A stretch of 39,519 nucleotides of DNA from a bacterium (GCA_030680955.1 JAUXUB010000042.1:1-39519); one strand, 5' to 3'; positions 1 through 37,656 are shown, counted from the first letter of the stretch. The notes: generated by a model not told the origin, from the sequence alone. A program made the numbers and translations.

Positions 1-1094
1 GTAATAACACCAATTTTCATATTATTAATGTCACTCCAATTAAGTATCCCAGGGATTGTAATTGTTGTAGTTTTAGAGGTAAAAATGGTTTGATCAGTAC
101 CGGTATAATCAGGCAAATAGGGTATGCCATCATAAATAGTACCACCTAAATCAATACGCGGTGTTATTTTTAATGTTGATCCATTAGAAGATCGAGCAGC
201 CCAAACAATCAAATTAAATGTCGTCGATGGAATTCCCTGCGAGTTGGTTGTATGTACTCCAAACAGCGCGGAACTATTTAGTGCTGCACTATAAATATAT
301 TTAGTACTAGAGTTTTCATTAAGTACACATAGGTAGTTATCAAAATCGGTACAATTATTCTTGGTCCAAGTTCCTGTGAGAATACCAACTGTGCTTGTTA
401 TTGGTTGGAGGGTAAACGTTCCCGACGTTGTATTCCCAATCGCATATGCGGGCTGAACTGGCAATAAAGTTAAATCGTTTCCAATTTCGTAAACATTTGA
501 AAAACTGCCACCATCTGTTGTTGTTAAATCTTGATACTTTGCTGATTCAAAACGCATATTTAAATCCCATGAACCACAACCATAAGAGTAGTAGTAACCA
601 GATGCAAATGTATTTACTGGGTCAACAGGCAGAACTGCAAGCGGTGGTTGCGAGCCAGCAAGTTGAGTAAAATCGATTGGGAGCCAACCATCGCCGTTTA
701 CGGCGCGCAATTTATCGGAGGATACTTGTGCATATTGCCAACCGGGAGGCGCGGCAGGTGGTGTGATGTCATTAGGTACAGAAACAAAAATTCTGGGATC
801 TACTCCTCCTGGCGGCGGCGGATCTCCTACGCAAGAGTCGTGTTCTCCAACTGGTGAACCCACATTAGGAAATCTTGGGCCATCGCCATCTTCCGTTACC
901 GAGTTTGACGAGGCGCCATAATTAAACAATGCCATTGCTAAATTTATGTGAGTTGCATCAGATAACCTTTGCGCGTCTCTGGCCCGGCGCAAATATTCGG
1001 CCGGATTTAAAATGAGCATAACAATAGCGGCAAGCACCACAAGCACCGCTATCACAACCAAAATTTCTATTAATGTGAATCCTTTTTTGATCAT
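1..1094 (-). CDS. type IV pilin-like protein (prepilin N-terminal cleavage/methylation domain); 3' end runs off the window
   Basis: Hand translation from the ATG at 1094 gives MIKKGFTLIEILVVIAVLVVLAAIVMLILNP, a classic G/FTLIE pilin N-terminus. The frame stays open to base 1 (>=364 aa). It is absent from the ORF track because no stop lies in the window. Confidence 0.8.
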   Translation of the reverse strand, partial: MIKKGFTLIEILVVIAVLVVLAAIVMLILNPAEYLRRARDAQRLSDATHINLAMALFNYGASSNSVTEDGDGPRFPNVGSPVGEHDSCVGDPPPPGGVDPRIFVSVPNDITPPAAPPGWQYAQVSSDKLRAVNGDGWLPIDFTQLAGSQPPLAVLPVDPVNTFASGYYYSYGCGSWDLNMRFESAKYQDLTTTDGGSFSNVYEIGNDLTLLPVQPAYAIGNTTSGTFTLQPITSTVGILTGTWTKNNCTDFDNYLCVLNENSSTKYIYSAALNSSALFGVHTTNSQGIPSTTFNLIVWAARSSNGSTLKITPRIDLGGTIYDGIPYLPDYTGTDQTIFTSKTTTITIPGILNWSDINNMKIGVI

Positions 1095-1123
1095 TGGTTA
1101 AAGTATAGCATAAGATATAAAAA

Positions 1124-1517
1124 CAATATTTACTGACCCGATGACCAGAACAGGGGGAATAATATTTGGGTCATCAGGTCAGAAGAGGGACAGGGAAAAA
1201 ATCAATGCGAATTAATAGAATAACTATACCATATTGAAGTTACATGAGGAAAAAGGAGGGGTGGGGATAAGTTTAGGGCTAAGCTAAAAAACCAATATTA
1301 TGACTTCCGATGTCCGGAGACAACTGCATTAATATTTGGGACATCGTAAGTCGGTATAACCATGGGGTGGGGATAAGTAGACACCAATATTTACTGACCC
1401 GATGACCAGAACAGGGGGAATAATATTTGGGTCATCAGGTCAGAAAAAAATGGGAGGGTTATCAGATGAGGGAGGGTAACTGCATTAATATTTGGGTAGT
1501 CGGATGTCGGACTACCA
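1124..1517. repeat. cluster of AATATT-box hairpin repeats (family H1), copies at 1124-1182, 1293-1354, 1385-1443, 1478-1517
   Basis: Copies 1124-1182 and 1385-1443 are identical. Each copy reads CAATATT + 14-nt arm + purine-rich spacer + (T/C)AATATTTG + complementary 14-nt arm. Confidence 0.85.
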
Positions 1518-1525
1518 CTTTAACA

Positions 1526-1744
1526 TTAAGCAGGAATAGGAATTCTATTTCGTCCCGCAATTATTTCAAGATTTTCCTTATTGTGCGTTCGTTCTATATA
1601 ATCTAAAATCTCAATTCCTAAAATGACACCGTTTTTATCCACGTCAAATAAAATACCACCCTTATCTTTGCTGGTTTTTGCAACTTTGCCTTCTACTAAA
1701 GCAATATAGAGGGCATCTACTTCCTTGTCGTACTTAATTTTCAT
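1526..1744 (-). CDS. DUF2283-family small protein (putative antitoxin partner)
   Basis: 72 aa, MKIKYDKEVDALYIAL...GGILFDVDKNGVILGIEIL matches my recollection of the DUF2283 pattern. It overlaps the upstream DUF4258-like gene by 11 nt. Confidence 0.65.
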   Translation of the reverse strand: MKIKYDKEVDALYIALVEGKVAKTSKDKGGILFDVDKNGVILGIEILDYIERTHNKENLEIIAGRNRIPIPA

Positions 1745-1952
1745 AATAAGAAGTTATTATTATATATATTTCTTTATCTTGTTTATAGATAACAATTAGC
1801 TTTTTAGTTCCAAATTTATACACGCACTTTATTTTCTCGTACTCTAAAATTTCTCTATTCTGTCCATTTATCAGCGCCTCCGTAATTAATCTCTTACTAA
1901 TAACTCTTTGCTTTAGACGATCTAGTGCGTGCTTACTGTATCGTATCTTCAT
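1734..1952 (-). CDS. DUF4258-family small protein (putative toxin)
   Basis: 72 aa starting MKIRYSKHALDRLKQR..., a DUF4258-like N-terminus. It is translationally coupled to the DUF2283 gene. Confidence 0.6.
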   Translation of the reverse strand: MKIRYSKHALDRLKQRVISKRLITEALINGQNREILEYEKIKCVYKFGTKKLIVIYKQDKEIYIIITSYYEN

Positions 1953-1989
1953 TTATATAATTCATTGTATATCAAAAATAGTTAGTTGG

Positions 1990-2070
1990 TCAACTGCATG
2001 CAATAATTCGGTCTAATTTCGATAGATCGTCCTCTGCCCTTCCGTAAAATTCCACTCTCCATACAGACAT
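1990..2070 (-). pseudogene. truncated RelE/ParE-like toxin fragment (26 codons)
   Basis: Hand translation gives MSVWRVEFYGRAEDDLSKLDRIIACS*. This resembles the N-terminus of RelE/ParE toxins (..A..DL.KLD...) but stops after 26 aa. Confidence 0.4.
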
Positions 2071-2096
2071 AGGAAAAATTTAATAATACTTCTTCT

Positions 2097-2288
2097 TTAT
2101 TTCAGAAAGCGGAGTACTTTTTTTACAAGTAATGAAATTCCTGTAAGTCTCTTTTTTGCTTTAGCAGTAAGTTCATATCCAAAATCAGGGTCTTCTAGAA
2201 CGTCTTTAATTGTCTCAGCAATAAATGCTTTTGTTATAGGCGTAAGTTTTTTATTTTCTTTAGTAATTACATTTATGCTTTTATAATA
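2097..2288 (-). pseudogene. antitoxin-like ORF remnant without a canonical start codon
   Basis: 63-codon open frame (..KAFIAETIKDVLEDPDFGYELTAKAKKRL..) that begins directly after a TGA. It has no ATG/GTG/TTG start and sits about 27 nt upstream of the RelE-like fragment. Confidence 0.3.
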
Positions 2289-2382
2289 TCACAGCTTATT
2301 TGATGAGTAAACATATGATATAATAAAAGTGGAAGTAGGAAAATATTTGATCATCAGACTATTATCACAGATAAAAAACGCT

Positions 2383-2442
2383 CAATGTTATGAAGTCGGA
2401 TAACCTACTGCAAAAAAATCAATATTTGGGTTATCCGACTTC
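2383..2442. repeat. AATATT-box hairpin (H1) copy
   Basis: Arms GAAGTCGGATAACC and GGTTATCCGACTTC pair perfectly. The loop ends in CAATATTTG. Confidence 0.8.
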
Positions 2443-2481
2443 GAGAGACAGCGAAAGTCGGGGGCAAATAAATAAGAAACA

Positions 2482-4089
2482 ATGCCGGAAAAAACGATAA
2501 AAAAGAAAAAGGGGACTCATTTGCTTACAAGAACGATAATTTTTATGGCCATTATCGCTGTTGTGCCGCTAATTATTGCTGCGCTATCAATTCGCATTTT
2601 TGATAATCTGCAAAAAAAAGATATTGATGCAAGACAAATTGACGTTATTTTAAGAGTTGAGCATGATCTTAATAAAGAATTTTCTACAAAGCCAAATACA
2701 AATGGGACAATAATTGACTCATCCGGTAACCAAGACAAAAAAACAATAATTGGGTTACCAGATGAGAGCACTGCTAAACTAAAAGAAACATTAAAGAGCG
2801 TTATTACGGAGAATGAAATTAAACGAACGGGTTATATTTTTATAACTGACGATAGAGGAATGCTTTTGGTGCATAGTCAAAAAGAGGTGAGCGAACCAGT
2901 GGATTTGAGCTCTTCGCCAATTGTAGGAAGTCAACTTTTCCAAGGAAATATAAAACTTGAGGGACAACCAAGCTACGATAGTTATTGGGGAGTGCCGGTT
3001 ATTGGAAATGGAAAAATGACAACCATTGTGGGTTTTGACAAAAAAATAGGAGTTTTTGTTGAGCTACCCGCAAAAGAATCTAATACAGATTTCGTGTTTC
3101 TTGCAACCCAATTTTCAATCGTCGCAGTATTTGCTTTTCTCCTCACCGCAATATTTGGTTATTATCTTGCAAGTGGAATAATCTCTCCCATTCGTGAATT
3201 GCAGAGAGGTACCAAACGTATAGTAGAAGAAAAATTTGATGAACCAGTTAAAATAAAAAGCGCAAACGAAATAGAAGATTTGGGCGAAGCATTTAATACA
3301 ATGATGGGTGGCCTAAAAGAACTTAAAGAACTACGAGAAGAATTTATTTTCGTTGCCGCGCATGAACTTCGCACTCCTGTTACTGCAATTAAAGGTTTTA
3401 TTCAATTGGTGCTGGAGGAGCAAGCTGCAACAGCAAATACAGGCGTTGCCAATCCTTCGACTACGCTCAGGACAAGAGAATACCTAACAAAAGCTATTGG
3501 AGCAAACGAGCGTCTTATTACATTAGTTAATGATTTGCTTGAAGTAGCCCGAGAAGAAGCAGGAAGACTTGAGATTGAAGTGAGGCCTACAAACATTACA
3601 GAACCTATTGCAACTACAATTTCAGAGCTTTCTCAACTTGCCAAAGAAAAACAGATAGAAATAAAATACTCACCCTCCCAATTTTTATCTGACAAAAGTT
3701 CGGAGGGTAAACCTGCAAAAGATTTGCCACAAGTACAGGGCGATGCGCGCCGCATTGGTGAAGTTACAACAAACCTTATTGGGAATTCTATAAAATATAT
3801 GGGTGGCGCTGGAACTATTACAGTTTCGCATGAAATCAAAGGCGACAAACTTGTAACGTACATTGCAGACACTGGAACAGGAATTTCCAAAGAAGCCCAA
3901 GGTAAATTATTTGAAAAGTTTTATAGAGTTTATAACGAGAAAACAAAAGATGTTAAAGGTACAGGACTCGGACTCTTTATTGTTAAGAAAATTATAGAAA
4001 AAATGGGTGGGAAAATTACTGTAGAATCCCCCACGTTACCAAGTGGCGGCGGAACGACATTTAGCTTTGAGTTGCCAGTGGCGAAATAG
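2482..4089 (+). CDS. sensor histidine kinase (2 TM, periplasmic sensor, HAMP, HisKA, HATPase_c)
   Basis: H-box FVAAHELRTPVTAIKG, G-boxes DTGTGI and GTGLGLFIVKKIIEKMGG. Hydrophobic segments lie near residues 17-37 and 205-228. Confidence 0.9.
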   Translation: MPEKTIKKKKGTHLLTRTIIFMAIIAVVPLIIAALSIRIFDNLQKKDIDARQIDVILRVEHDLNKEFSTKPNTNGTIIDSSGNQDKKTIIGLPDESTAKLKETLKSVITENEIKRTGYIFITDDRGMLLVHSQKEVSEPVDLSSSPIVGSQLFQGNIKLEGQPSYDSYWGVPVIGNGKMTTIVGFDKKIGVFVELPAKESNTDFVFLATQFSIVAVFAFLLTAIFGYYLASGIISPIRELQRGTKRIVEEKFDEPVKIKSANEIEDLGEAFNTMMGGLKELKELREEFIFVAAHELRTPVTAIKGFIQLVLEEQAATANTGVANPSTTLRTREYLTKAIGANERLITLVNDLLEVAREEAGRLEIEVRPTNITEPIATTISELSQLAKEKQIEIKYSPSQFLSDKSSEGKPAKDLPQVQGDARRIGEVTTNLIGNSIKYMGGAGTITVSHEIKGDKLVTYIADTGTGISKEAQGKLFEKFYRVYNEKTKDVKGTGLGLFIVKKIIEKMGGKITVESPTLPSGGGTTFSFELPVAK

Positions 4090-4113
4090 GTAACAAGTGA
4101 AGTGAAACATGTG

Positions 4114-4269
4114 ATACCATTTCCAATTAACCTCTACTCTTTTAACCTCGTCTTTGCGAGGAGGAACGACGAAGCAATCCAGATTTATCCCGTTATTTCC
4201 TGGATTGCCGCGGGCTTCGCCCTCGCAATGACAAAAGTCTTATAGGAAGTGGCTAATTAAGGATAGTAT
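4114..4269. mobile_element. 156-bp MITE-like element (family H3), copy A, inverted relative to copies B and C
   Basis: Near-identical to 10490-10635 and 37483-37638. It has terminal inverted repeats ATACCAT..CAATTAACC / GGTTAATTGG..ATGGTAT and an internal long imperfect hairpin (GTCATTGCGAGG..CCTCGCAAAGAC). Confidence 0.85.
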
Positions 4270-4320
4270 AAGATAAGAAATGAAACATGGGAAAAATGTA
4301 GAATTTGGAAAAAATGAAAA

Positions 4321-4344
4321 ACTCCGTGGTGCGGAGTTTTTTTC
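4321..4344 (+). terminator. rho-independent terminator (possibly bidirectional)
   Basis: ACTCCG-tggtg-CGGAGT followed by TTTTTTT. An A-run on the other side could serve the convergent minus-strand gene. Confidence 0.7.
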
Positions 4345-4350
4345 AAGATA

Positions 4351-4629
4351 TCAGTTTAGGATATCTGTATCTATAATAACTCTGGTCTTTTTCACATCAA
4401 AGTCTTTAACTGATTTTCTTAGTACTTCTTTATCTCCATCAAATGGAGGACTTTCATAAATAACTTCGTCGTCTTTATCCCAGATTGCTAAAACCTCTCC
4501 ATCTGCGAAAACGCGAATCTTAGCGCCACATTTACAGAAATACTCTGAAATATACTCTCTCGTTAATGGAGTGTATTGGATACTTTCTGGACCATTATAA
4601 TAATGCTTATGATCAAACCATAACCACAT
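4351..4629 (-). CDS. hypothetical protein, 92 aa
   Basis: Intact ORF with a strong AGGAGAGGAG about 8 nt upstream of the ATG. I recognise no motif. Confidence 0.5.
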   Translation of the reverse strand: MWLWFDHKHYYNGPESIQYTPLTREYISEYFCKCGAKIRVFADGEVLAIWDKDDEVIYESPPFDGDKEVLRKSVKDFDVKKTRVIIDTDILN

Positions 4630-4697
4630 TAATTACTCTCCTCTCCTAAAATACTGGGTAGATTATATCACAATTAATTAAAATTGCAACCTAAAAG

Positions 4698-4901
4698 CAA
4701 TATTATGACATCCGACTACCAAGACAAGAGAGGGCCTCAATATTTGGGTAGTCGGATGTCGGGGAAAAATGAGGTCTCAATATTTATGAAGTCCAATGTC
4801 CAGCGACAACTGCATTAATATTTGGGACATCGGACTTCAGGGGGTCATCAGGTCAGAAAAGAGACGAGGGGAAATCAATATTTGGGTAATCGGATGTCGG
4901 G
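4698..4901. repeat. cluster of AATATT-box hairpins (H1), copies at 4698-4762, 4778-4838, 4840-4901
   Basis: Arm pairs are GACATCCGACTACC/GGTAGTCGGATGTC and GAAGTCCAATGTCC/GGACATCGGACTTC. CAATATT boxes recur every 38-41 nt. Confidence 0.85.
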
Positions 4902-4991
4902 ACGCTTATTTATTAAAATAACTGTCAAATTTTTAAAAATCCAAATTCTATATTCTCCGCCAAAGGCGGATCCAACTCTGGTGGACAAATT

Positions 4992-5294
4992 CTACAAAGA
5001 GACTCCGAGTTTTCGCTGTAATTGCTTTTGAGACAAATCGCGAACAAAATAAATTTTTGATCTACCAACTTTTTTAGGAGAAGAGATTATATCTATTTTG
5101 GTGATAATTGGTGAGTGTATTGGATATGTTTTTTCCATTCCTACTCCAGCAACAATTCCACGAACCGTAAATGTTGCGCCTGGTTCCGAGCCATGTTTCC
5201 TGGAAATTACGATACCGACAAAACGGCCCACCTGATCGTGAACCCTAATTTTTGCTCCTGCCTTTATTTTTTTTAATATTTCTTCTGAAATCAT
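4992..5294 (-). CDS. rplS: 50S ribosomal protein L19
   Basis: ..FVGIVISRKHGSEPGATFTVRGIVAGVGMEKTYPIHSPIITKIDII..SKIYFVRDL matches the L19 core. I prefer the ATG at 5294; the track's TTG at 5336 lies inside a repeat. Confidence 0.85.
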   Translation of the reverse strand: MISEEILKKIKAGAKIRVHDQVGRFVGIVISRKHGSEPGATFTVRGIVAGVGMEKTYPIHSPIITKIDIISSPKKVGRSKIYFVRDLSQKQLQRKLGVSL

Positions 5295-5295
5295 A

Positions 5296-5391
5296 CAAGA
5301 TAATTCGAATCTACGAATTTTTAACGAATAATACAAATATAAAAACTCATTCGTTACATTCGTATTAAATTCGTATCATTCGCATTATAAT
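5296..5391. repeat. ATTCGT periodic palindrome (family H2)
   Basis: 3 ACGAAT units, then 4 ATTCGT units at about 10-11 bp spacing. It fills the whole spacer between the receiver gene stop and the rplS start. Confidence 0.8.
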
Positions 5392-5772
5392 TTATTGTTG
5401 CTTAGTAAAAAATCCCGATATTTCTTTTGCAAGAACATCAATGGAAGTTTTAGCTTTGATAAAATATGCAACAGCTCCCAATTCTTTGCCTCGCGCAATG
5501 TCGGACTCTTGCCCGAGGTTTGAAACAATCATTACAGGCAATTTAACCAAACGTGGATCGTCGCGCATAATTTCTAGAACTTCAAACCCCGATTTTTTTG
5601 GGAGTATTAAATCCAGTAGAACCAAATCTGGTTTTTCTTTGCGCAATAATTCTAATGCTTCTTCACCATCTGCGGCGTAAGCCACAACAAAACCCTCCTT
5701 TGCAAGGCGGGCCTTCAAGAGCGATGAAAGAAATGGATCGTCTTCTACTAAAAGTAGTTTCTTCTGAGGCAT
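5392..5772 (-). CDS. single-domain response regulator (CheY-like receiver)
   Basis: 126 aa with LLVEDD, DLVLLDLILP and IVSNLG/KA motifs and no output domain. TATAAT lies 6 nt before the ATG, so the mRNA is probably leaderless. Confidence 0.9.
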   Translation of the reverse strand: MPQKKLLLVEDDPFLSSLLKARLAKEGFVVAYAADGEEALELLRKEKPDLVLLDLILPKKSGFEVLEIMRDDPRLVKLPVMIVSNLGQESDIARGKELGAVAYFIKAKTSIDVLAKEISGFFTKQQ

Positions 5773-5895
5773 AGAATTATTATAGCATACACACCAATTA
5801 ACCTACAACTGTGAACTCATAACTAACCACATAAAAATATATAATTTCAAATTTATACGTCGTTATTGGTCGTTAGTTATAAGTTGTGGGTTGTT

Positions 5896-6050: not shown

Positions 6051-6226
6051 TACAGCTCACCTTAGTGAGATGCAACGAGTCGTGGCTTGTGGCCTTACGA
6101 CTAATACCATTGACCAAATATTAGACTTGGTCGATCGACAAACTTTTTGTATTTAATTAATCCACGGACAGCTTCCGCTACCCGTGCCTTGTTACGACTT
6201 CTGCCATGTCACCGAACTTACCCTAA

Positions 6227-6407
6227 CCCAGCTTGAAATTTATGATTTCAAGCTGGAAAACTCTAAACTCTAATATCTAAACTCTAAACAAATGGGAAAT
6301 AAATTCTCAAAACTCAAAACTTTGAATTTTGGAATTTGAGATTGTTTAGGATTTAGGATTTCGATTTTAGGATTTCCCAGCTTAAAGTTCACAAACTTTA
6401 AGCTGGG
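6227..6407 (-). other. about 180-nt expansion at the tip of 16S helix 44
   Basis: It lies between the CCGCCCGTCAC region and AAGTCGTAACAAGG. Two CCCAGCTT..AAGCTGGG hairpins flank a hairpin of CTCTAAA / TTTAGGA 7-nt units. Confidence 0.75.
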
Positions 6408-6488
6408 CTTCAGGTATTCCCGGCTTCCTTGCAGTGACGGGCGGTGAGTACAAGATCCGAGAACGTATTCACCGCGCCATAGCTGATG

Positions 6489-6519
<31 letters not shown>

Positions 6520-6670
6520 GCGAGTTGCAGCCTCCAATCCGAACTGGGGCCAGATTTATGGGATTAGCTCCGGCTTGCGCCTTGGCAACCCTTTGTTCTG
6601 ACCATTGTAGCACGTGTGTAGCCCAGGACATCAGAGGGCCACGCTGATTTGACGTCATCCCCGCCTTCCT

Positions 6671-6800
6671 CCCCCCTCTTTGTTCACAAATGCGAAAGCT
6701 GATAGCTATTAGCTTATAGCTTTTAGAAAAAAAACTTTTAAATTCCTAAAAGCTAACAGCTCTAAGCTGAAAGCTTTGCGCTTATGCGCAAAGAGGGGGG
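6671..6800 (-). other. about 130-nt expansion hairpin in the 16S V7 region (helix 39-40 neighbourhood)
   Basis: CCCCCCTCTTTG...CAAAGAGGGGGG closes arms made of AGCTNNT-type 7-nt units. It sits immediately 5' (RNA sense) of GGAGGAAGGCGGGGATGACGTC. Confidence 0.7.
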
Positions 6801-6869
6801 CGGTTCTGTGTGACACTTGTAACACACAGTAGGGGTTGCGCTCGTTACCCCACTTAAGGGAACGTCTCC

Positions 6870-7788
6870 TATTTTTTTTAATCTCTAGATTACTTTAGAG
6901 TTAAGACTATACCTTCATCCCTCTCCACGCATGGGGAGGGAGCTGGCGTGTTAGCTAGAAAAACAATTGTTTATTTTTCTAACTCCTCCCTACTACGCCT
7001 TCGGCGAATAGGGAAAGTCGTTACAGGGTCTGGAAGTTTATATCGCATACTAGGAATGATATGAGGTAAAATTACCTCAAGAAATTTATTGTGTGAATTT
7101 TTTCTGATTGTTAGCTTTTTATTACTTCCTATCACTGTCTCAATGCCAAATTGTTCTAATAGGACATTTTGTACTCTTTGCATACTCAATAGATCGAAGC
7201 AGTCGGTTGATATTATAACTTTTTCCCCAGTCCAACAACCATCATCCATATACCAAACTGCTAATGACATTGGAGTAAGTTGAAGTCCTTCTGGAAATAC
7301 TTTCTTACCTTCCGAATAAAAAATTGTTCTCCATGGCCTAAAATATTGCCTAAGAACAAAGTATATAGAAGCGTATTGCTTATTACGCTTTTTATATTCT
7401 CTAACAATTTCTCGTGGTGATGCTGGATATGCTAAAGATTTTAACTCATCATATTTCCATATGACATAATCTTTTTGAGCGTTTGATTGCTCAATCCTGA
7501 TTTGTCCCTTAGGACGAATCGTAGCATCTCCTAGCACGCAACCAATTAAAATTTCACGCTGTCTCACGTTTACACGTAATACTAAATTTTTCCTAGCACA
7601 AAGCATTATTGGAACTTCCAAACTTCCCACGGTATTGCCCTCTGGTAACTGGTCACAAGACGCTGGTTTCTGGTACATTTTTTAATTATACCAGTCACCA
7701 GGCATTTAACACCAGCTATCAGTTCGGGTTTCACCGTTATGAGCCAGATTTTCAATCAGGATTACTCCTGAAAGTCTCGAGATTTCAA
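6870..7788 (-). mobile_element. about 919-bp insertion (probable group I-type intron) in 16S near E. coli position ~1070
   Basis: It interrupts CAGCTCGT|..|GAGACGTTCCCTTAAGT. About 110 nt and 100 nt of hairpin-rich non-coding flanks surround a LAGLIDADG ORF. Confidence 0.75.
6971..7678 (-). CDS. LAGLIDADG homing endonuclease (two motifs) inside the 16S insertion
   Basis: Motifs ILIGCVLGDATI and LAVWYMDDGCW are about 100 aa apart. The true start may be the internal Met at MLCARKN. Confidence 0.85.
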   Translation of the reverse strand: MYQKPASCDQLPEGNTVGSLEVPIMLCARKNLVLRVNVRQREILIGCVLGDATIRPKGQIRIEQSNAQKDYVIWKYDELKSLAYPASPREIVREYKKRNKQYASIYFVLRQYFRPWRTIFYSEGKKVFPEGLQLTPMSLAVWYMDDGCWTGEKVIISTDCFDLLSMQRVQNVLLEQFGIETVIGSNKKLTIRKNSHNKFLEVILPHIIPSMRYKLPDPVTTFPIRRRRSREELEK

Positions 7789-7900
7789 GATACGAGCTGA
7801 CGACAACCGTGCAGCACCTGTTCCTAGGTCCTTGAGAGACAACTCGCCTTTCGACAAGTCTTCCTAGAAATTTCAAGCCCTGGTAAGGTTCCTCGTTTAC

Positions 7901-7937
<37 letters not shown>

Positions 7938-7946
7938 TCCCCGTCT

Positions 7947-7978
<32 letters not shown>

Positions 7979-8079
7979 TCCCAGGCGGTCTGTTTAACGC
8001 GTTAGCTAAGCCACTCCGAGGGTCGATACTCGAAATAGCGAACAGACATCGTTTACGGCGTGGACTACAAGGGTATCTA

Positions 8080-8867
8080 CAATTTTGTTACTGAACAAAA
8101 TTGTAATTTTCAATTTTCAAACACCAATTTACAATTAAATTCCAATGCTTAAAACTTAAAATTACAAAATTATTACTGGCATGGACATTTCTACCATGCT
8201 CTGCATGTCGCCATGCAGTTCGGACTATATCTTATCAAAAAAATTATATGGCGAGTGAGATTCACTCGCCTTTTTTTGATCTCAGCGTATAGTCTCTGAG
8301 GGAATCACAAATTTATCTTGGTCTATTTTAAATCTATCTGGAATTAATTGCCTCATCAAGCAACCTATCTGGCGCTAAACGAAGCCCGCACACAGCACAA
8401 TGCGCATGCTTTTTATTTTCCAAACTCGTATTATTTTCAGAACAATTAATATCCATACAAACAGGTCTGGCTACAGTGGACAAACAATTTGAACACCATC
8501 CAGCGATTGTTTCCATGATATCCTCTTTCTTTGTGATCTTCCCTGCTGGTTGTCTGCACCAACAGATTTTTACCTTTCGGTACTGTTGGATACTCAGGGT
8601 TTCCAGCATATAGCTAAGTTATCCGAGCACATAAAGCTTATGTGCTCGGGGACTATTCTCCTCCATACCCATGGAGGGATTATTTTTTTGATTTTTGATT
8701 TCTAGCTGTGGTCAGGTCTTTGTGAAGAAGCTCTCGGAGCTCGATTTGCTTGGTCCGCCTCTGGCGGAAATCGAGCGAGAGCGCAGGTCCGATTTTTCGC
8801 AGGAAAAAATCGAGACCGATTCTAAACAAAGATCTGACCGCAGTAGACGCAAAAAAATAATCAGTTA
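8080..8867 (-). mobile_element. about 788-bp insertion in the 16S 790-loop region (GGAT|TAGATACCC)
   Basis: It splits the GGATTAGATACCC block. The 5' exon can end in U and the insert in G, as in group I introns. It contains many perfect helices, e.g. CCGAGCACATAA..TTATGTGCTCGG and GCTCGATTT..AAATCGAGC. Confidence 0.7.
8334..8609 (-). CDS. Cys-rich small ORF inside the second 16S insertion (function unknown)
   Basis: METIAGWCSNCLSTVARPVCMDINCSENNTSLENKKHAHCAVCGL has CxxC..C..C..CxxC, which looks zinc-ribbon-like. The probable start is the ATG at 8516. I see no LAGLIDADG, GIY-YIG or HNH motif. Confidence 0.35.
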   Translation of the reverse strand: MLETLSIQQYRKVKICWCRQPAGKITKKEDIMETIAGWCSNCLSTVARPVCMDINCSENNTSLENKKHAHCAVCGLRLAPDRLLDEAINSR

Positions 8868-9708
8868 ATCCTTTTTGCTCCCCACGCTTTCGTGTTTCAG
8901 GGTCAGGTGCGCCCCAGTGAACTGCCTTCGCCTTTGGTATTCCGCACGATATCAACGGATTTCACCCCTACACCGTGCGTTCTATTCACCTCTAGCGCCC
9001 TCTAGCACTGCAGTATCCTAAGCAGCCTTACCGTTAGGCGGTAAGATTTAACATAAGACTTGCAGAGCCCCCTACACACCCTTTACGCCCAATAAATCCG
9101 GATAACGCTCGAGGTCTACGTATTACCGCGGGTGCTGGCACGTAGTTACCAACCTCTTTCCATACGCTACTCTGCCGAAGCTTGTTTGCGTATTACCGCA
9201 GTTTACAACCCGAAGGCCTTCTTCCTGCACGCGGCGTCGCTCCATCAGGCTTTCGCCCATTGTGGAATATTCTCGACTGCTGCCTCCCGTAGGAGTACGG
9301 ACCGTTTCTCAGTTCCGTCGTTGGAGATCGGGCTCTCACCCCTCCTACCCGTCATAGCCTTGGTGAGCCATTACCTCACCAACTAGCTGATAGGACCTAA
9401 GCCACTCCCGAAGCGAATTGCTTCTTTAATATTGCTATACCATCGGATATTACCCCATCTTTCAATGGGCTATCTCCGACTTCGGGGTATGTACTAGGGT
9501 ATTACTAACTCGTTCGCCACTATCCGGCGCGTAGCGCCGGAACATTTAAATGTTGAAATATTTAAATATCCCAGTGCTACGCACTGGACCGTTCGACTTG
9601 CATGCCTTATCCACGCCGCCAGCGTTCATCCTGGACCAGGATCAAATCCTCTTTTAAAAATAAATTGCAAAGTACACTCGATCGAGGACCTTGCAATTAA
9701 TCTTTCTA

Positions 9709-9853: not shown

Positions 9854-9984
9854 CCCGCCCAAGCCTTCGCGCTTCTAGCGAAAGAAACTCTAAAATCTAA
9901 TTTCTAATTTCTAAATTCTAAAATTTTTGTTTAGGATTTAGATTTTAAACTTTAGGCTTTCCTTCTGAAAGAAGGCTGGGGCGG
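9854..9984. repeat. periodic-unit hairpin in the 16S leader
   Basis: CCCGCCCAAGCCTTC / GAAGGCTGGGGCGG closes arms of CTAAAAT/CTAATTT units paired with TTTAGGATTTAGATTTT. Confidence 0.7.
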
Positions 9985-10440: not shown

Positions 10441-10489
10441 AAATACAATTTTGTAATAAAAAGAAAAGTGTGATATTTTATACTATCCC

Positions 10490-10635
10490 CAATTAACCAC
10501 TTCCTTTAAGACTTTTGTCATTGCGAGGGCGAAGCCCGCGGCAATCTAGGAAATAACGGGATAAATTTGGATTGCTTCGTCGTTCCTCCTCGCAAAGACG
10601 AGATTAAAAGAGTAGTGGTTAATTGGGGATGGTAT
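10490..10635. mobile_element. MITE-like element (H3), copy B
   Basis: Same sequence family and orientation as 37483-37638. Confidence 0.85.
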
Positions 10636-10669
10636 TAGAACAAGATCATAAAGAAAAAAGGAGAAGTAT

Positions 10670-14240: not shown

Positions 14241-14328
14241 GATAAAGCGAATACTACGAATTTATGAACGAATGATACGAATAAAATATTCGTATCATTC
14301 GGTATTCATTCGTGTCATTCGTATTACA
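14241..14328. repeat. ATTCGT periodic palindrome (H2) filling the rpsL-rpsG spacer
   Basis: ACGAATGATACGAATAAAATATTCGTATCATTCGG core with extra units on both sides. Confidence 0.85.
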
Positions 14329-14742
14329 TTATTTTTTTGGTGTCTTAGCACCATACTTAGACCTTTGCTGTTTCCTACCTTCTACTCCTCCAGCATCAAG
14401 CACACCACGAACAATGTGGTAACGAACACCAGGAAGATCTTTTACTTTACCACCTCGAATCATAACAACAGAGTGCTCTTGTAATTTATGTCCTTCACCG
14501 GGAATATATGCCGAAACTACCATACCATTAGTTAACTTAACTCTGGCAACTTTTCTAAGTGCGGAGTTTGGCTTTTTTGGGGTAGTTGTAAAAACTTTAA
14601 GACAGACTCCTCTTTTAAAAGGTGAATTTGAAATAATTGGAGCGTTTTTAATAGTATTAAAATAAAGCTCAAGTGCAGGAGATTTGTTTTTCTTAACCTT
14701 ATCTTTACGACAATTTTTTAAAAGTTGTTTATATGTCGGCAC
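14329..14742 (-). CDS. rpsL: 30S ribosomal protein S12
   Basis: ..[37 protein letters not shown]-like sequence. GTG start. Confidence 0.95.
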
Positions 14743-15689: not shown

Positions 15690-15779
15690 AAAATTTATTC
15701 TGAAAATGATTCTTTGTAATTAAGGATACCTTAATTACTTAAACCAAAATTCCAGTTTCATTATTTTAGTAAATGGATT

Positions 15780-15810
15780 AATATTATCGAAGTCGGACTT
15801 CGATAATATT
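15780..15810. repeat. perfect 31-nt palindrome related to H1 (AATATTATCGAAGTC-G-GACTTCGATAATATT)
   Basis: Seen directly in the sequence. It shares the AATATT box and the GAAGTCGGA arm motif. Confidence 0.7.
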
Positions 15811-15990
15811 AAAAATCAAGAAATTTCCGCAAAATAGACGCAAAATACTTTGACGATGTCTAAAGCGGCGACCTTTTTAATTAAAAACCTAAGCTTAGAT
15901 TACTTAGTTTTATTAATGTCTTTCTATAGTATACCATTTTTAAAAATCAAATTTAATTCAAATAACTTAGTTGTAGAATACGAGTAATTA

Positions 15991-16359
15991 TTAGAATAAA
16001 TCTGTGATTCGTGAACGTGCCAATTGATCCATCTCCTTATCATTATAATTGTCGATGTGTGTAGAAATACATAAAAAAGCGATGATGGAGCCTTTTACGC
16101 CAAACCACATTCTTGGATATTGATTCGGGCGCAAACCAGAATTTGGTATAACAAGCTCTACTTTCCACATCGACCAAATATCATTTTGTGTTATACGGTG
16201 AAGTTTGGCTGGCGCAACGACTTGTTTCGGATCTGTCGGATGGAATTGCACCTCACATAAGCGCTCAAATGCGGCGAAACCATCACGAACACAACGAAAT
16301 CGCCGCTCAATGGCAGCTATCTCTTTTTGGATTCCATCGTGATACAGAAACTCAATCAT
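15991..16359 (-). CDS. putative toxin, RelE/HigB-like fold (inferred)
   Basis: 122 aa. WKVELVIPNSGLRPNQYPRMWFGVKGSIIAFLCISTH resembles the RelE/ParE K.R...GKSGG.RvIY...I.LL core. ATGA overlap with the upstream Panacea gene. Confidence 0.5.
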   Translation of the reverse strand: MIEFLYHDGIQKEIAAIERRFRCVRDGFAAFERLCEVQFHPTDPKQVVAPAKLHRITQNDIWSMWKVELVIPNSGLRPNQYPRMWFGVKGSIIAFLCISTHIDNYNDKEMDQLARSRITDLF

Positions 16360-18496: not shown

Positions 18497-20731
18497 ATGA
18501 AACTGTCAGGTTTAGAAAGTGAATATATTCTCTATTTAGCCTCTTTCCCTCCTAGAGAGTGCGGCATTGCAACATTTACACAAGATCTCACTACTGCTTG
18601 CGACAAGAAATTAAATCCTGCAATAAAATCACGCATTGCGGCTCTAAATGATGAACGCCATACAATATATAACTACGGTAATAAAGTAGTAGATCAAATT
18701 GTTGCTACAGAGCTTCATGAGTACGTAAAACTTGCAAAAAGAATCAACCTACAGGATGATATAAAAATTGTAAACATTCAGCACGAATTTGGCCTTTTTG
18801 GTGGCGAATGGGGCGACTATATAATCCCCTTTCTTCAGGCACTTGAAAAACCAGTTGTCGTAACATTTCATTCTGTAATGTCAGATCCAGACGATCACCT
18901 CAAAAGTGTTGTCCGCGCTATTGCCGAACACTCAAAGTCTTTAATCGTAATGAACAAGCTTTCTGAAAAGACTTTGATTGCAGACTATAAAGTTCCAAAA
19001 TATAAAATTGCCGTTATTCCTCATGGTATTCCATCTGCCACATTTGAACCAAGCGATATTTCGAAAGAAAAACTAGGGCTAAGTGGCAAAACAGTGCTTT
19101 CTACATTTGGAATGCTTAGCCCAAATAAAGGAATAGAATATGCTATCCGCGCTCTTCCAGAGGTTGTAAAACAATTTCCTAATGTGGTTTATTTAGTGCT
19201 TGGCGAAACTCATCCACTTATTAGAAAATCCAACGGAGAAGAATATAGAAACTTTTTAATAAGTGAGGTTGGACGACTCGGACTAGATAAAAACGTAAAG
19301 TTTTATAATAAATATTTAACTCTTGAAGAAATAGTTTCTTTCCTTAAAGCAACAGATATTTATATTGGACCATCACTTGATATGCAACAATCAGTTTCTG
19401 GTACGCTTTCATATGCTCTTGGATGCGGCAGACCAGTAATCTCTACAGCTTCAGAATATGCTAAATACTTAATAGATAGTAGTGTAGGACTTTTAGTTAG
19501 ACCAAAAAATGAACGTGCCTTAAAAGACGCGATGCTCCAAATGTTACAAGATCCAAGATGGATGAAAAGCTTAAGTGCGCAAGCATATGAAAAATCTCGC
19601 CATATGACTTGGCCTAATGTTGCAGGGGCTCACATGAATTTATATAAAAAATTCGCGGAATTTGGCGAAGAAGAAAAGAAATTGCCAGAACTTAAACTAG
19701 ACCACCTAAAGAGAATGACTGATAGCTTTGGTATTTTGCATTTCGCAAAATATAGTACGCCCGAGACACGTTATGGCTATAACCTAGATGACAATGCTCG
19801 CGCTTTGATTGTAGCGACGCAGAGCTATGCAAAAAACCATTCTGCGGAAATGTTAGACTACATAAAAATTTATTTAGATTATTTTGTTTATGTAATGCGG
19901 TCCGACGGAACTTTTGCCAATATCGTGTCATCTAAACTTGTCAAAGACGGAACAAGGGATGAAGATGTTCAAGGAAGAGCATTTTGGGCTCTTGGTTATG
20001 TGGCCGCACAAAATTCATTACCAAAGGAAATTGTAGACAAGGCAACAATACTTCTAAGGAAAGGGCTTCATAATGTTCGTACACTTAAATCACCTCGAGC
20101 AATAGCATTCACAACAATAGGATTATATTATTTCCTAAAGAGTAACCCCCAGAAGGCTTTAATGAATACATTTATAAAGTTTGCCGATACACTTACTGCG
20201 CTATATAAAAAAAATGCAGAACCCGACTGGCTTTGGTTTGAACCACATCTTACATATTCAAATGCCGCACTTCCAGAAGCGCTTTTCTATGCTTACGAAT
20301 TAGTGAAGGATAAGAAATACCTTAACGTTGCAGAAGAATCACTTTCTTTTCTTAAAGGTATTACATTCTCACAAAAACACTACTCGCCTATTGGCCAAAA
20401 GGGTTGGTTCTTCCGCGATAAAGCACGCGCCTTTTTTGACCAACAACCAGAGGATACCGCTCATATGGTTCAAACAAAACTTACTGCATATAATGTAACT
20501 AATAAAACCGAACACTTTGAAGACGCCTACAAAGCATTCCAGTGGTTTTTGGGTAAAAACTTCTTAAATCAAGTAATTTACGACGAAGCGACAGGTGGCT
20601 GTCACGACGGTTTAGGCAAAGACGGTGTAAACTTAAATCAAGGGTCAGAATCTACAATATCTTATCTTCTGGCTCGGCTAGCGTTTGAAAATATAAATAA
20701 GCCGCAGGCGGAATTAATTCAGGAAATCTAA
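18497..20731 (+). CDS. GT4 glycosyltransferase fused to a C-terminal alpha-helical (toroid-like) domain
   Basis: The N-terminal ~390 aa look like GT4 (..GETHPL.., ..SLDMQQSVSGTLSYALGCGRPVIST..). The C-terminal ~350 aa are helix-rich with W/Y/F repeats and are unassigned. Confidence 0.7.
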   Translation: MKLSGLESEYILYLASFPPRECGIATFTQDLTTACDKKLNPAIKSRIAALNDERHTIYNYGNKVVDQIVATELHEYVKLAKRINLQDDIKIVNIQHEFGLFGGEWGDYIIPFLQALEKPVVVTFHSVMSDPDDHLKSVVRAIAEHSKSLIVMNKLSEKTLIADYKVPKYKIAVIPHGIPSATFEPSDISKEKLGLSGKTVLSTFGMLSPNKGIEYAIRALPEVVKQFPNVVYLVLGETHPLIRKSNGEEYRNFLISEVGRLGLDKNVKFYNKYLTLEEIVSFLKATDIYIGPSLDMQQSVSGTLSYALGCGRPVISTASEYAKYLIDSSVGLLVRPKNERALKDAMLQMLQDPRWMKSLSAQAYEKSRHMTWPNVAGAHMNLYKKFAEFGEEEKKLPELKLDHLKRMTDSFGILHFAKYSTPETRYGYNLDDNARALIVATQSYAKNHSAEMLDYIKIYLDYFVYVMRSDGTFANIVSSKLVKDGTRDEDVQGRAFWALGYVAAQNSLPKEIVDKATILLRKGLHNVRTLKSPRAIAFTTIGLYYFLKSNPQKALMNTFIKFADTLTALYKKNAEPDWLWFEPHLTYSNAALPEALFYAYELVKDKKYLNVAEESLSFLKGITFSQKHYSPIGQKGWFFRDKARAFFDQQPEDTAHMVQTKLTAYNVTNKTEHFEDAYKAFQWFLGKNFLNQVIYDEATGGCHDGLGKDGVNLNQGSESTISYLLARLAFENINKPQAELIQEI

Positions 20732-20734
20732 TAA

Positions 20735-20840
20735 ATAAAATCTTAAATCTCAAATGTATATCTCAAATCTTAAATCTGTTCTAAAAAGATTTGAATTTTA
20801 AGATGTAGTTTTGAGATTTAATTTTTTAGATTTAAGATAT
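20735..20840. repeat. AT-rich periodic-unit hairpin (H4)
   Basis: It shares the 23-nt core with 13725-13747 and has AAATCT/ATCTCAAA units in inverted arrangement. Confidence 0.75.
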
Positions 20841-20841
20841 T

Positions 20842-22062
20842 ATGAAACTTATCGATATAGCATACAAAAAAGCCATTATTGCCCTAGAGCACTGCGCTAA
20901 ACCAGTTGGTTTTTATGCTTCTGGTTTAAAAGGTGGATACGAGGCCATTTGGGCGCGCGACTCAATGACAACTTCACTCGGCGCTTCGCTTGTCCGACTT
21001 CCGATGTCCAAAATATTAATGCCGTCTATTTCCGGACATCGGAAGTCACAAAATTGGGCTTTTAAAAATACTTTCCGGAAAAGCCTAGAAGCCCTTGGCA
21101 ATAATCAAGCCTGGCACGGAGCAATCCCTAACGCGGTTGGCTGTTGGAATAACGAAAGACAATCAGACGTAACATTTAACTCAATTGATTCCAGTTTATG
21201 GTTTATTATCGGGCATTATGTTTACTCATATGCCTACGCAGATAAATCATTAATCAAAAAAAATAAAAGGGAAATAGATGCTGCGCTTAAATGGGTTCAA
21301 TTTCAAGATCCAAATAACGACGGGCTTCCAGTGCAACAACCAACAATGGACTGGGAAGATATCTTCCCTCACAAATATGGCAGAGTTCTAAACACGCAGG
21401 CACTTTACTATGCTGCATTAAAATTTACTGGTGATAACAAAAAAGCTGAGCAGTTGAAAAGAATTGTAAATGGTGAGACACAAAAAACTATTTCGCTCTA
21501 TGATAAAAAGAGAGGTTATTATTCACCTTGGGTTTGGAAATATCACGGACCACTTGGTCGCGAGGAAGAACATTGGTTTGATACACTTGGAAATTTACTT
21601 GCAATTGTAACTGGACTTGCAACACCAGCAATTTCTAAAAACATCTTAAATTATATTGATAAAAATAAAGTTAACCGTCCATTTCCATGTAAGGCGATTT
21701 GGCCGACTATAAAGAAGGGCGACAAAGAATGGCATTGGTACTTTGACTCAGCGGAGTGCAAAAATCCATATCACTATTCAAATGCCGGCATCTGGCCATT
21801 TATTGGTGGATTTTATGTAGCTGCTTTAATAAAAGCGGGACAATTTAAAAAGGCGGAAAAGGAGTTAGAAAAACTGGCCGAAGGAAACAAAGAAGTTCAT
21901 CCAAAAGAAAAACGCGTTAAGGAATATGGTTTCCAAGAATGGCTTCATGGCAAGACTGGTAAGGCCATGGGCGGCTCCTCTGCTTACCAAGGTTGGTCAG
22001 CTGGAACGTATATTTATGCCTATGAATGCGTAAAAAATAAAAAAGTATTATTTTTTAAATAA
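20842..22062 (+). CDS. (alpha/alpha)6-barrel glycoside hydrolase, GDE_C / GH100-invertase-like
   Basis: IWARDS, TMDWEDIFPHKYGRVLNTQALYYAAL, YHYSNAGIWPFIGGFY and QGWSAGTYIYAY motifs. Confidence 0.7.
   Translation: MKLIDIAYKKAIIALEHCAKPVGFYASGLKGGYEAIWARDSMTTSLGASLVRLPMSKILMPSISGHRKSQNWAFKNTFRKSLEALGNNQAWHGAIPNAVGCWNNERQSDVTFNSIDSSLWFIIGHYVYSYAYADKSLIKKNKREIDAALKWVQFQDPNNDGLPVQQPTMDWEDIFPHKYGRVLNTQALYYAALKFTGDNKKAEQLKRIVNGETQKTISLYDKKRGYYSPWVWKYHGPLGREEEHWFDTLGNLLAIVTGLATPAISKNILNYIDKNKVNRPFPCKAIWPTIKKGDKEWHWYFDSAECKNPYHYSNAGIWPFIGGFYVAALIKAGQFKKAEKELEKLAEGNKEVHPKEKRVKEYGFQEWLHGKTGKAMGGSSAYQGWSAGTYIYAYECVKNKKVLFFK
20992..21057 (-). repeat. H1 hairpin copy inserted in frame in the hydrolase CDS (codons 51-72)
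   Basis: The reverse complement CCAATTTTGTGACTTCCGATGTCCGGAAATAGACGGCATTAATATTTTGGACATCGGAAGTCGGACA aligns at about 85% identity with copy 1293-1354. 66 nt = 22 codons. Confidence 0.8.
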
Positions 22063-22080
22063 CATTTATTTTCACAAAAC

Positions 22081-22150
22081 CTCCGACTTCCTCTAATCGG
22101 ATGACCCAAATATTGATGCGTTGGTCTCCGGTCATCTGATTAGTTAATAT
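22081..22150 (-). repeat. H1 hairpin copy (reverse orientation)
   Basis: Arms are CTAATCAGATGACC/GGTCATCCGATTAG. The loop is GGAGACCAACGCATCAATATTTG. Confidence 0.8.
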
Positions 22151-22165
22151 TAGCCTTTAGTTCTA

Positions 22166-31841: not shown

Positions 31842-31921
31842 ATCCCATTAGAAGCGCGGCAAATAAAGTTGAGCAAATTACTATGCAGTAGACTCATTCG
31901 ATGATTCGCTTCTAACGGGAT
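31842..31921. repeat. inverted pair of ATCCCGTTAGAAGCG motifs (H5) spanning the reductase stop codon
   Basis: ATCCCATTAGAAGCG (31842-56) pairs with CGCTTCTAACGGGAT (31907-21). The single mismatch is a G-U pair only in the minus (sense) transcript. Confidence 0.8.
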
Positions 31922-37300: not shown

Positions 37301-37482
37301 ATGAACATTAATCAAATCGCGAATTAAGGTCTCTAATTCTCTCAAATGCCGTAAGATTTCGAGAATATTCGAGATTCCAATTCGAGACTTTACTCATAAG
37401 TTACCTAATTATCGCTACTATCCTACTACAAAATACTAGAAGAATGCAAATCAATAAAAAAGGAGCAATTATGGCCCAATTT

Positions 37483-37638
37483 ATACCATCCTCAATTAAC
37501 CACTTCCTAAAAGACTTTTGTCATTGCGAGGGCGAAGCCCGCGGCAATCCAGGAAATAATGAGATAAATCTAGATTGCTTCGTCGTTCCTCCTCGCAAAG
37601 ACGAGATTAAAAGAGTAGTGGATAATTGGGGATGGTAT
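37483..37638. mobile_element. MITE-like element (H3), copy C, in the ftsA-ftsZ spacer
   Basis: ATACCATCCTCAATTAACCAC...GTGGATAATTGGGGATGGTAT. Near-identical core to copies A and B. Confidence 0.85.
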
Positions 37639-37656
37639 TACAACGCATTCTGAATA

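Follow-up and report, generated by a model that had tools for sequence, protein, structure and literature searches.

A stretch of 39,519 nucleotides from a bacterium (GCA_030680955.1, JAUXUB010000042.1:1-39519; the whole stretch is here called the window) contains repeated copies of a short hairpin element built from AATATT boxes and two complementary 14-nt arms. The element has multiplied in the genome of its host, has inserted into spacers, into a 5' leader and, in frame, into two genes, and its arms co-vary. We consider it probable, at roughly 60%, that these hairpins are a non-autonomous family of palindromic repeats, similar to REPINs and to Rickettsia palindromic elements (RPEs), that needs the pairing of its arms to propagate. 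The host belongs to the Parcubacteria group of the candidate phyla radiation (CPR) and has a tiny genome. The G+C content of the window is 38%, and it carries ordinary housekeeping genes, according to Pfam and NCBIfam scans of the window open reading frames (ORFs). The window shares synteny with a Candidatus Liptonbacteria contig (JACOXY01), in which the order EF-G, S7, S12, MscS-like channel, GH130, GT4, GH100, GH130, GT4, PIG-L is kept; Liptonbacteria are placed in the Parcubacteria group of Patescibacteria by NCBI.

RESULTS

Structure of the element and its copies in the window

Full copies were found by an unbiased inverted-repeat scan (14 nt) together with direct reading of positions 900-5200, 15700-16000 and 20700-22260. 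A covariance model was used to score the copies in bits and to judge which pattern matches were real elements. The results showed that the unit is about 60 to 72 bp long and consists of a (C)AATATT box, 2 to 3 nt, a 14-nt arm, a loop of 13 to 18 nt, AATATTTG and the complementary arm. Each arm is built on the frame G-A-N-N-T-C-S-G-A-N-N-N-C-C, in which a central C or G separates two GA-NN-TC-like half-sites, and its variation is concentrated at positions 3-4 and 10-12. Outside the window, the most frequent arm, GACATCCGATGTCC, is a palindrome in its own right. An AATATT-like box stands on each side of both arms in many other genomes. The element is therefore an inverted doublet of a palindromic unit of about 31 bp, of which the singlet at 15778-15812 is an example; the window copies, in which the outer right and the inner left boxes have been lost, represent an asymmetric derived form. 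The identical paralogues at 1123-1192 and 1384-1453 delimit the copied unit: it starts at CAATATT, ends with AA after the right arm and measures 61 nt.

In total, the window contains 9 full hairpin units and several fragments. A preliminary description, made from the sequence alone, had listed 11 copies. Eight of these were full units with the layout described (54-73 bits, with 0-1 mismatch in the 14-nt arms of each), whereas the other three were different: 1478-1517 comprises just one half of a unit, a box and the right arm, and its fold-back is no longer than 7 bp, 4840-4901 is no hairpin but carries two right-type arms in direct order that are not complementary and do not fold (z = +0.57), and 15780-15810 is a lone perfect 17-bp palindrome instead of a two-box copy. 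A full copy at 2708-2776 and orphan pieces at 1457-1470 and 2342-2359 were absent from that list. The GG reported after the arm was present in some copies, not in all, and the purine-rich spacers held only in part, the loops being 69% purine when counted from the sequence. Folded as RNA, the full units had energies of -19 to -30 kcal/mol, and folded as DNA, of -10 to -18 kcal/mol (z from -2.2 to -6.8); they were stable on either strand. AATATTTG occurred 18 times in the window against 5.9 expected (0 of 100 shuffles reached 18), and the arm-frame motif occurred 11 times against 0.2 in shuffles. The copies and fragments are as follows.

1123-1192, plus strand: full unit, CAATATT-TA-CTGACCCGATGACC-loop-AATATTTG-GGTCATCAGGTCAG, centre pair C:A (53.6 bits, fold)
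1292-1362, plus strand: full unit, arms GACTTCCGATGTCC and GGACATCGTAAGTC with 1 mismatch, loop of the ...ACAACTGCATT subfamily (67.9 bits, fold)
1384-1453, plus strand: full unit, 61 nt identical to 1123-1192 (57.5 bits)
1457-1516, plus strand: fragments; an orphan right-type arm GGTTATCAGATGAG at 1457-1470 (arm motif), then a half unit AACTGCATT-AATATTTG-GGTAGTCGGATGTC with its arm at 1495-1508, followed by GGACTACC (14.6 bits, 7-bp fold-back)
2342-2359, plus strand: box and degenerate arm remnant AATATTTGATCATCAGAC (motif scan)
2382-2452, plus strand: full unit in the leader of the histidine-kinase gene, first box CAATGTT, arms GAAGTCGGATAACC and GGTTATCCGACTTC in perfect pairing (63.3 bits)
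2708-2776, plus strand: full unit in frame within the histidine-kinase ORF (2482-4089), boxes AATAATT, encodes NGTIIDSSGNQDKKTIIGLPD (47.3 bits)
4697-4770, plus strand: full unit, arms GACATCCGACTACC and GGTAGTCGGATGTC in perfect pairing (67.3 bits, fold)
4778-4848, plus strand: full unit, loop subfamily as in 1292-1362, outer half-site flipped on both arms (GAAGTC, not GACTTC) (59.5 bits)
4843-4898, plus strand: two orphan right-type arms in direct order, GGTCATCAGGTCAG at 4843-4856 and AATATTTG-GGTAATCGGATGTC at 4877-4898 (no hairpin)
15778-15812, no strand assigned: singlet palindrome AATATT-ATC-GAAGTC-G-GACTTC-GAT-AATATT, REP-like, with a box on each side (17 nt, 100%)
20986-21057, minus strand: full unit in frame within the GH100/GDE_C gene (20842-22062, plus strand), encodes RLPMSKILMPSISGHRKSQNWA (72.6 bits)
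22083-22153, minus strand: full unit between the GH100 and GH130 genes, arms CTAATCAGATGACC and GGTCATCCGATTAG, centre pair A:C (62.1 bits, fold)

The arms vary as matched pairs

Covariation was examined in an alignment of 58 distinct copies against the 14-bp stem, with 500 shuffles and a sliding of the partner arm by 1 to 3 columns as controls. As the preliminary description had proposed, the arms differed between copies and the partner changed in step. Pairing was found in 98.2% of the cells compared with 81.4% in the shuffles, 12 of the 14 pairs had changed on both sides, and the cells with a change on both sides numbered 118 against 25 in the shuffles. The covariation score was 0.447 versus 0.116 in the shuffles, none of which reached 0.447, and when the partner was slid by 1 to 3 columns, pairing fell to 28-52% and the score to at most 0.087. 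Non-Watson-Crick cells were limited to 24 of 812; nine of them lay at the central pair (position 7), which is a mismatch hot spot. In a separate test, a partner arm with at most 2 mismatches was present at 36 of 53 CPR-labelled loci and at 0 of 41 non-CPR loci (p = 3e-13). This test involved no selection on complementarity, which removes the concern about ascertainment.

The pairing constraint was also evident in paralogues with identical loops and in an orthologous in-gene copy (see below). Among 51 copy pairs with a loop identity of at least 0.8, 84 pair changes were compensated and 43 were one-sided. Two copies in Portnoybacteria STC_33 (L102 3147 and L102 5153) were identical at 26 of 26 loop bases and differed by two flipped pairs, the outer half-site being changed from CA to TG and the change being mirrored on the other arm. 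Similarly, the window copies at 1292-1362 and 4778-4848 had a common loop and carried GACTTC and GAAGTC, respectively, mirrored on both arms. Because these paralogues have fixed loops and mirrored arm flips, the arm variants look as if they move as matched pairs, faster than the loops, which resembles half-site exchange or conversion and not slow point compensation.

Insertion polymorphism of the element

A 21-amino-acid segment of the histidine kinase, NGTIIDSSGNQDKKTIIGLPD, was encoded exactly by the unit at 2708-2776 and was missing in all 6 closest histidine-kinase homologues, including one that was 83% identical across the alignment. That homologue's contig (L109) was syntenic with window positions 1700-5800. 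Three of the window insertions were missing from it, namely, the copy inside the gene, the one in the leader at 2382-2452 and the entire cluster at 4697-4898, and it had a unit elsewhere. The window histidine kinase was not found on record elsewhere, which left no near-identical strain in which to read an exact empty site. The GH100 insert, of about 21 amino acids after LGASLV, was common to the nearest relatives and missing in many homologues, and the topoisomerase I (TopA) of L014 had a clean 24-amino-acid insert relative to the TopA of L024. In Harrisonbacteria MHJJ01, a 227-bp composite consisting of 19-bp terminal inverted repeats around two hairpin units was found in three places, with 98-99% identity and unrelated flanks. 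Repeated head-to-head doublets were found in Portnoybacteria and in a related metagenome-assembled genome (MAG). The empty sites in the syntenic relative and the near-identical Harrisonbacteria composites, read at the level of sequence, indicate that the element is mobile now or was so recently. [quoted passage not shown] This contrast was not supported, given the lineage-specific insertions, the identical paralogues and the near-identical composites; mobility and a need for a hairpin are compatible, by analogy with REPINs and IS200/IS605-type ends.

The 227-bp composite is located at L041 3099-3325, L062 1325-1551 and L069 3609-3835. Its ends are CACCTCCTTTC, which is anti-Shine-Dalgarno-like, and GAAAGGAGGTG, which is a perfect Shine-Dalgarno sequence; a ribosome-binding site could thus be brought in by insertions. 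The first element cluster of the window is adjoined by a DUF2283/DUF4258 pair (1526-1952, minus strand), probably a toxin-antitoxin pair, and at the equivalent place L109 has a ParE-type pair, also with a unit alongside. An apparent synteny of L022 and L023 with the window was rejected as a coincidence of coordinates.

Copies inside genes

Based on a simple ORF model applied to 55 copies, 25 lay within long ORFs, 16 of them antisense and 9 sense. The host genes were unrelated: they encode TopA, two Mur ligases, threonyl-tRNA synthetase (ThrRS), asparagine synthase (AsnB), a DUF4147/MOFRL kinase-like protein (with two copies), a GT2 glycosyltransferase, methionyl-tRNA formyltransferase (Fmt), an O-antigen ligase and a 2-hydroxyacid dehydrogenase, besides the histidine kinase and the GH100 hydrolase of the window. 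In the cases compared, inserts of 21-24 amino acids were missing in close homologues. A recurrent peptide, ...GTSDVPNI(D/N)xNxRTSDVQK..., corresponded to one frame in 11 of 19 in-ORF copies, and the stop-free frames per unit numbered 2.29 of 6 compared with 1.34 in shuffles. In an AlphaFold2 model of the GH100 protein, the one case modelled (mean pLDDT 84.5, pTM 0.89), the insert formed the main low-confidence loop (residues 54-68, pLDDT below 50).

The GH100 copy was orthologous in the window, in L105 (90% amino acid identity) and in L106 (76%). In L106, one arm pair had changed from T:A to C:G, a compensated change, and a 1-nt change in loop length shifted the frame of the right arm (PDIGSR versus SGHRKS), with the DNA of the arm kept. 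The arms of the L106 copy were identical at 25 of 28 positions versus 71% for the gene (p = 0.03), and the loop at 16 of 24; with L105 and L106 pooled, the difference between arms and loop had a p value of 0.004, all of these numbers being small. They nevertheless argue that the stem of the nucleic acid, not the peptide, is retained in GH100 and that its maintenance continues, by selection or by conversion from other copies.

At the site of the GH100 copy, the hairpin of L108 is shorter and rearranged. At L108 11274-11324, downstream of the GH100 orthologue, there is a shorter hairpin that has the same left box (CAATATTAT) but lacks an inner box; its arms (GTCTTCGCAAGACC) are unrelated and its loop measures 4 nt. 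Judging from this hairpin, AATATT plus any hairpin may be a broader architecture.

Distribution of the family

One genome per GTDB species was scanned with the pattern YAATATTTGGGNNNTCNGANNTC, which gave at least 104 loci. Among the matches listed, real elements were found only in MAGs of Patescibacteria, in at least 28 assemblies, and the pattern matches in other phyla were without a partner arm. The names of the MAGs (Jorgensen-, Wolfe-, Harrison-, Lipton-, Nealson-, Portnoy-, Sung- and Moranbacteria) represent 8 named candidate phyla of the Parcubacteria group according to NCBI. A scan of viral contigs gave 5 chance matches and no element, and a metagenome scan with the window loop subfamily gave 9 chance matches and no element. 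A query of a protein collection with concatenated element peptides, a single peptide being too short as a query, returned only 3 candidates. No Rfam family matched at either gathering or permissive thresholds (best score, 26 bits versus a threshold of 41, at chance level). A full-text literature search turned up no report of the sequence or of the peptide, and none of RPE- or MITE-like repeats in CPR. In the genomes sampled, this previously unannotated family of palindromic repeats, which is of the REPIN/RPE/MITE type, is confined to CPR bacteria of the Parcubacteria group.

Other features of the window

A second, unrelated MITE-like repeat of about 165 bp was found at 4110-4271 (minus strand), 10477-10641 (plus strand) and 37480-37644 (plus strand), with 92-97% identity. 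It has 22-bp terminal inverted repeats, ATACCATCCCCAATTAACCACT and AGTGGTTAATTGGGGATGGTAT, around an 83-nt GC-rich imperfect hairpin beginning with GTCATTGCGAGGGCGAAGCCCGCGGCAATCCAG, and has no Rfam match. Further intergenic hairpins, at 6247-6386, 6695-6777, 9885-9953, 14248-14330, 20718-20846 and 5312-5392, have arms made of tandem repeats of 7 nt (or 9-10 nt), among them AAACTCT, AAATCTT, AAATTCT and ATTCGTATC; two 7-nt units likewise make up each arm in the AATATT-box family. In Liptonbacteria JACOXY01, a diversity-generating retroelement (RVT_1 plus bAvd; L106 7453-8798) lies between GT4 and GH100, and the equivalent site in the window contains only the heptamer-repeat hairpin at 20718-20846. 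The 16S rRNA gene (6163-9649, minus strand) is split, with Rfam segments at 6163-6446, 6510-6606 and 7984-9649, and the gap of about 1.4 kb between the last two segments holds an ORF for a LAGLIDADG endonuclease (6971-7678). The ribonucleotide reductase gene (31881-35648, minus strand) has an intein carrying an HNH endonuclease domain.

An ORF of 924 amino acids (27101-29875, minus strand) had no Pfam, NCBIfam or PDB sequence match, even with a profile of 31 sequences. Its family comprises 168 cluster representatives among 1.84 billion proteins; D553, H555, D604, H732 and H843 are invariant, and a GNH motif is present. The AlphaFold2 model (pLDDT 89.6) matched the Mre11-like exonuclease DP1 of PolD in a Foldseek search (E = 7e-5) and, more weakly, Mre11 and SbcD. 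On the strength of this model, the protein is a member of an unannotated metallophosphoesterase-nuclease-like family. As a candidate for a hairpin nuclease it found no support in a single test, the locus of its closest homologue being without elements.

DISCUSSION

Comparison with known repeats

RPEs have been described with an in-gene insertion pattern like that seen here (PMC10969869). As with RPEs, the element is short and palindromic and occurs in many copies in a reduced genome; a large part of these copies lies in frame in unrelated housekeeping genes, is missing in orthologues and adds a conserved peptide; in the one case modelled, the peptide may lie in a tolerant loop; and no cognate transposase is known. 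Unlike RPEs, which measure roughly 100-150 bp, the elements are about 60-72 bp long and live in Parcubacteria-group CPR hosts, and no sequence relation between the two was evident, an alignment of them not having been made. Moreover, their core is conserved across several candidate phyla, not in one genus, and their arms have a modular GA-NN-TC frame with compensated variants. The likeness to REPs and REPINs lies in the conserved short motif before each imperfect-palindrome arm, in the inverted doublet that forms a long hairpin kept by compensated changes, in the occurrence of singlets, doublets and clusters, and in the long persistence within a lineage. However, the motif is AATATT here and GTAG there, 25 of 55 copies are intragenic while REPs are extragenic, no RAYT homologue was found in the sampled DNA, and units of the window type lack the outer right box. 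MITEs such as Correia, ERIC, RUP and Nezha are also small and dispersed, with inverted-repeat arms and occasional in-frame fusions, and the Harrisonbacteria composite with its terminal inverted repeats is like them. In contrast to MITEs, no parent insertion sequence (IS) with the same ends was found, and the variable positions lie within the arms, while the loop can be more conserved; a target-site duplication was not visible, the exact ends not being fixed. With yeast mitochondrial GC clusters, which are organellar and unrelated in sequence, and with PARCELs, the elements share the form of palindromic, GC-richer modules in AT-rich genomes that are sometimes coding. PARCELs are palindromic DNA that is translated, giving tandem 25-residue repeats in surface proteins (PMC2996958), whereas the inserts described here are single and dispersed.

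A proposed mobile palindrome that depends on pairing

We propose that a trans-acting enzyme copies or mobilises the unit by recognising a folded single strand (box plus stem), which would more likely be DNA than RNA, and that only copies with pairing arms propagate. Arm variants would spread as matched pairs via half-site exchange or gene conversion between copies. Copies that lose the partner arm would persist as dead fragments, such as those at 1457-1516 and 4843-4898, and in-frame copies would persist in tolerant surface loops.

Several results weigh against this proposal. The enzyme searches covered about 0.85 Mb of partial genomes, at 8-20 kb per genome, and are weak negatives. Among the window ORFs, Pfam and NCBIfam scans revealed no transposase, recombinase, HUH or Nop-domain gene, in line with the preliminary description, which had noted that no transposase lies in the window. 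That description had also suggested a search for RAYT and IS200/IS605-type genes. A phmmer search with E. coli RayT against the six-frame ORFs of the sampled DNA gave a best E value of 0.06, and neither a RAYT nor an IS200-type gene was detected. When 414 ORFs from 52 loci were clustered all against all, no family was enriched near the elements; the 20 ORFs beside intergenic copies contained, by Pfam, only housekeeping, toxin-antitoxin and pilin genes (one unit sits between rpsH and rplF); and no transposase near copies and no parent IS sharing their ends was found. No target duplication was visible at the paralogues 1123 and 1384 or at the three Harrisonbacteria copies, where the exact ends are not fixed. 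In addition, copies between co-directional genes were mostly antisense (15 of 18, p = 0.008; with clusters as the unit of counting, about 12 of 15, p = 0.035). This bias could reflect an RNA role or, equally, the preference of a mechanism acting on single-stranded DNA for one replication strand, given that the orientation of genes tends to follow replication. Finally, the preservation of the GH100 arms and the near-identical core across very deep lineages hint at host-level or continuing constraint, which is unexpected for purely selfish, decaying insertions.

Alternative explanations

The hairpins might serve the host as an RNA structure on mRNAs, e.g., a site for RNase III or another endonuclease, a stabiliser or a weak terminator, in which case the RNA stem would be selected and the copies would be old, domesticated insertions. 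The antisense copies put the bottom strand on the mRNA, and in three window copies the C:A centre of the top strand is G:U on the bottom strand, which folds 1-6 kcal/mol better. The above-average conservation of the GH100 arms, with its compensated change, and the deep conservation of the core point in the same direction. However, there was no overall wobble asymmetry between the strands (9 G:T versus 8 A:C; 8 versus 3 without the centre, p = 0.23), and a consensus scan showed the units to be neither terminator- nor promoter-like. Both orientations occur in ORFs, many copies are lineage-specific insertions or dead fragments, and Rfam offered no match. We consider an RNA function rather unlikely.

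Alternatively, an unrecognised system specific for hairpins, passed on vertically across the Parcubacteria group, could use the units as its substrate; it would be either a RAYT-less replicator of the REPIN-RAYT type or a domesticated structured signal. The GA-NN-TC-S-GA-NNN-CC frame would then be read by a protein, and the compensated dinucleotides would be a code or be actively diversified. Such a system would explain the deep conservation, the better preservation of the arms compared with the loop and the host gene, and the orientation bias. A purely selfish model does not fully explain the deep conservation, the modular arm frame and the arm preservation in situ. We nevertheless regard this explanation as unlikely.

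Neutral upkeep of the DNA without selection is likewise unlikely. According to this explanation, template switching, mismatch correction of quasi-palindromes or gene conversion between copies would re-perfect the repeat. Quasi-palindrome mutagenesis is a known mechanism; mismatches are rare (24 of 812 cells) despite the diversity of the arms, and changes come as blocks that involve both dinucleotide positions and both arms, with the loops unchanged. However, upkeep leaves unexplained both the multiplication of the copies and the fixed GA..TC.GA...CC frame and boxes across 8 candidate phyla, and the orphan arms of the window persist without repair.

It is very improbable that the units are double-stranded DNA sites for a conserved protein (nucleoid, partition, or USS/DUS-like uptake) enriched by drive and not by transposition. 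The conserved box and the two-fold symmetric GA-NN-TC half-sites do resemble a dimer-binding site, and the units are frequent, lie in ORFs in preferred frames and have a lineage-wide consensus, which are properties of uptake sequences. Yet the copies are 60- to 70-bp insertions relative to orthologues, not point-mutated sites, and each genome has many arm variants that pair only with their own partner, which a sequence-reading protein would not enforce.

We see scarcely any chance that the peptide (GTSDVPNI...RTSDVQK) is selected as a mobile protein module with the DNA palindrome as a by-product. The recurrence of one frame in 11 of 19 in-ORF copies and the excess of open frames would suit such a module, but over half of the copies lie between genes, other frames occur, as do both orientations, the right arm of L106 is read in another frame while its DNA is kept with a compensated change, and the insert is modelled as a low-confidence loop.

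TIGR-Tas, an RNA-guided system common in CPR, has variable palindromic stems that flank box C/D motifs and spacers, and intragenic in-frame tigRNAs have been reported (PMC12045711; bioRxiv 10.64898/2026.09.09.750476). Although the elements resemble stem-loop tigRNA genes in their CPR hosts, their stems that vary yet always pair next to short conserved motifs, and their in-frame intragenic occurrence, we rejected this identity on loop size (21-26 nt, too small for two 8- to 12-nt spacers and four box motifs) and on the lack of a tas gene, with neither a Nop-domain nor a Tas gene among the window ORFs or in 30 host or neighbouring ORFs (Pfam), AATATTTG as the sole conserved loop motif, no spacer pairs or box C/D motifs, and copies dispersed in housekeeping genes, not arrayed around tas. 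Integron attC sites were likewise rejected: the boxes are AATATT, not an R''/R' core (RYYYAAC / GTTRRRY), and the window has no tyrosine recombinase.

Significance

CPR genomes measure about 1 Mb and are usually regarded as repeat-poor. A mobile, pairing-dependent palindrome in these genomes would explain some of the lineage-specific insertions in CPR proteins, and the element would be a marker for strain or lineage typing. Annotation pipelines will misread the inserts as protein features, and hairpins this stable may break assemblies. The family also raises the question of which enzyme copies a 60- to 70-nt hairpin where no RAYT or IS200-type gene is linked. If our interpretation is true, the family, spreading through spacers and through the frames of essential genes such as those for TopA, Mur ligases and ThrRS, would be a second independent case of Rickettsia-type selfish DNA in protein-coding genes, again in a lineage with reduced genomes.

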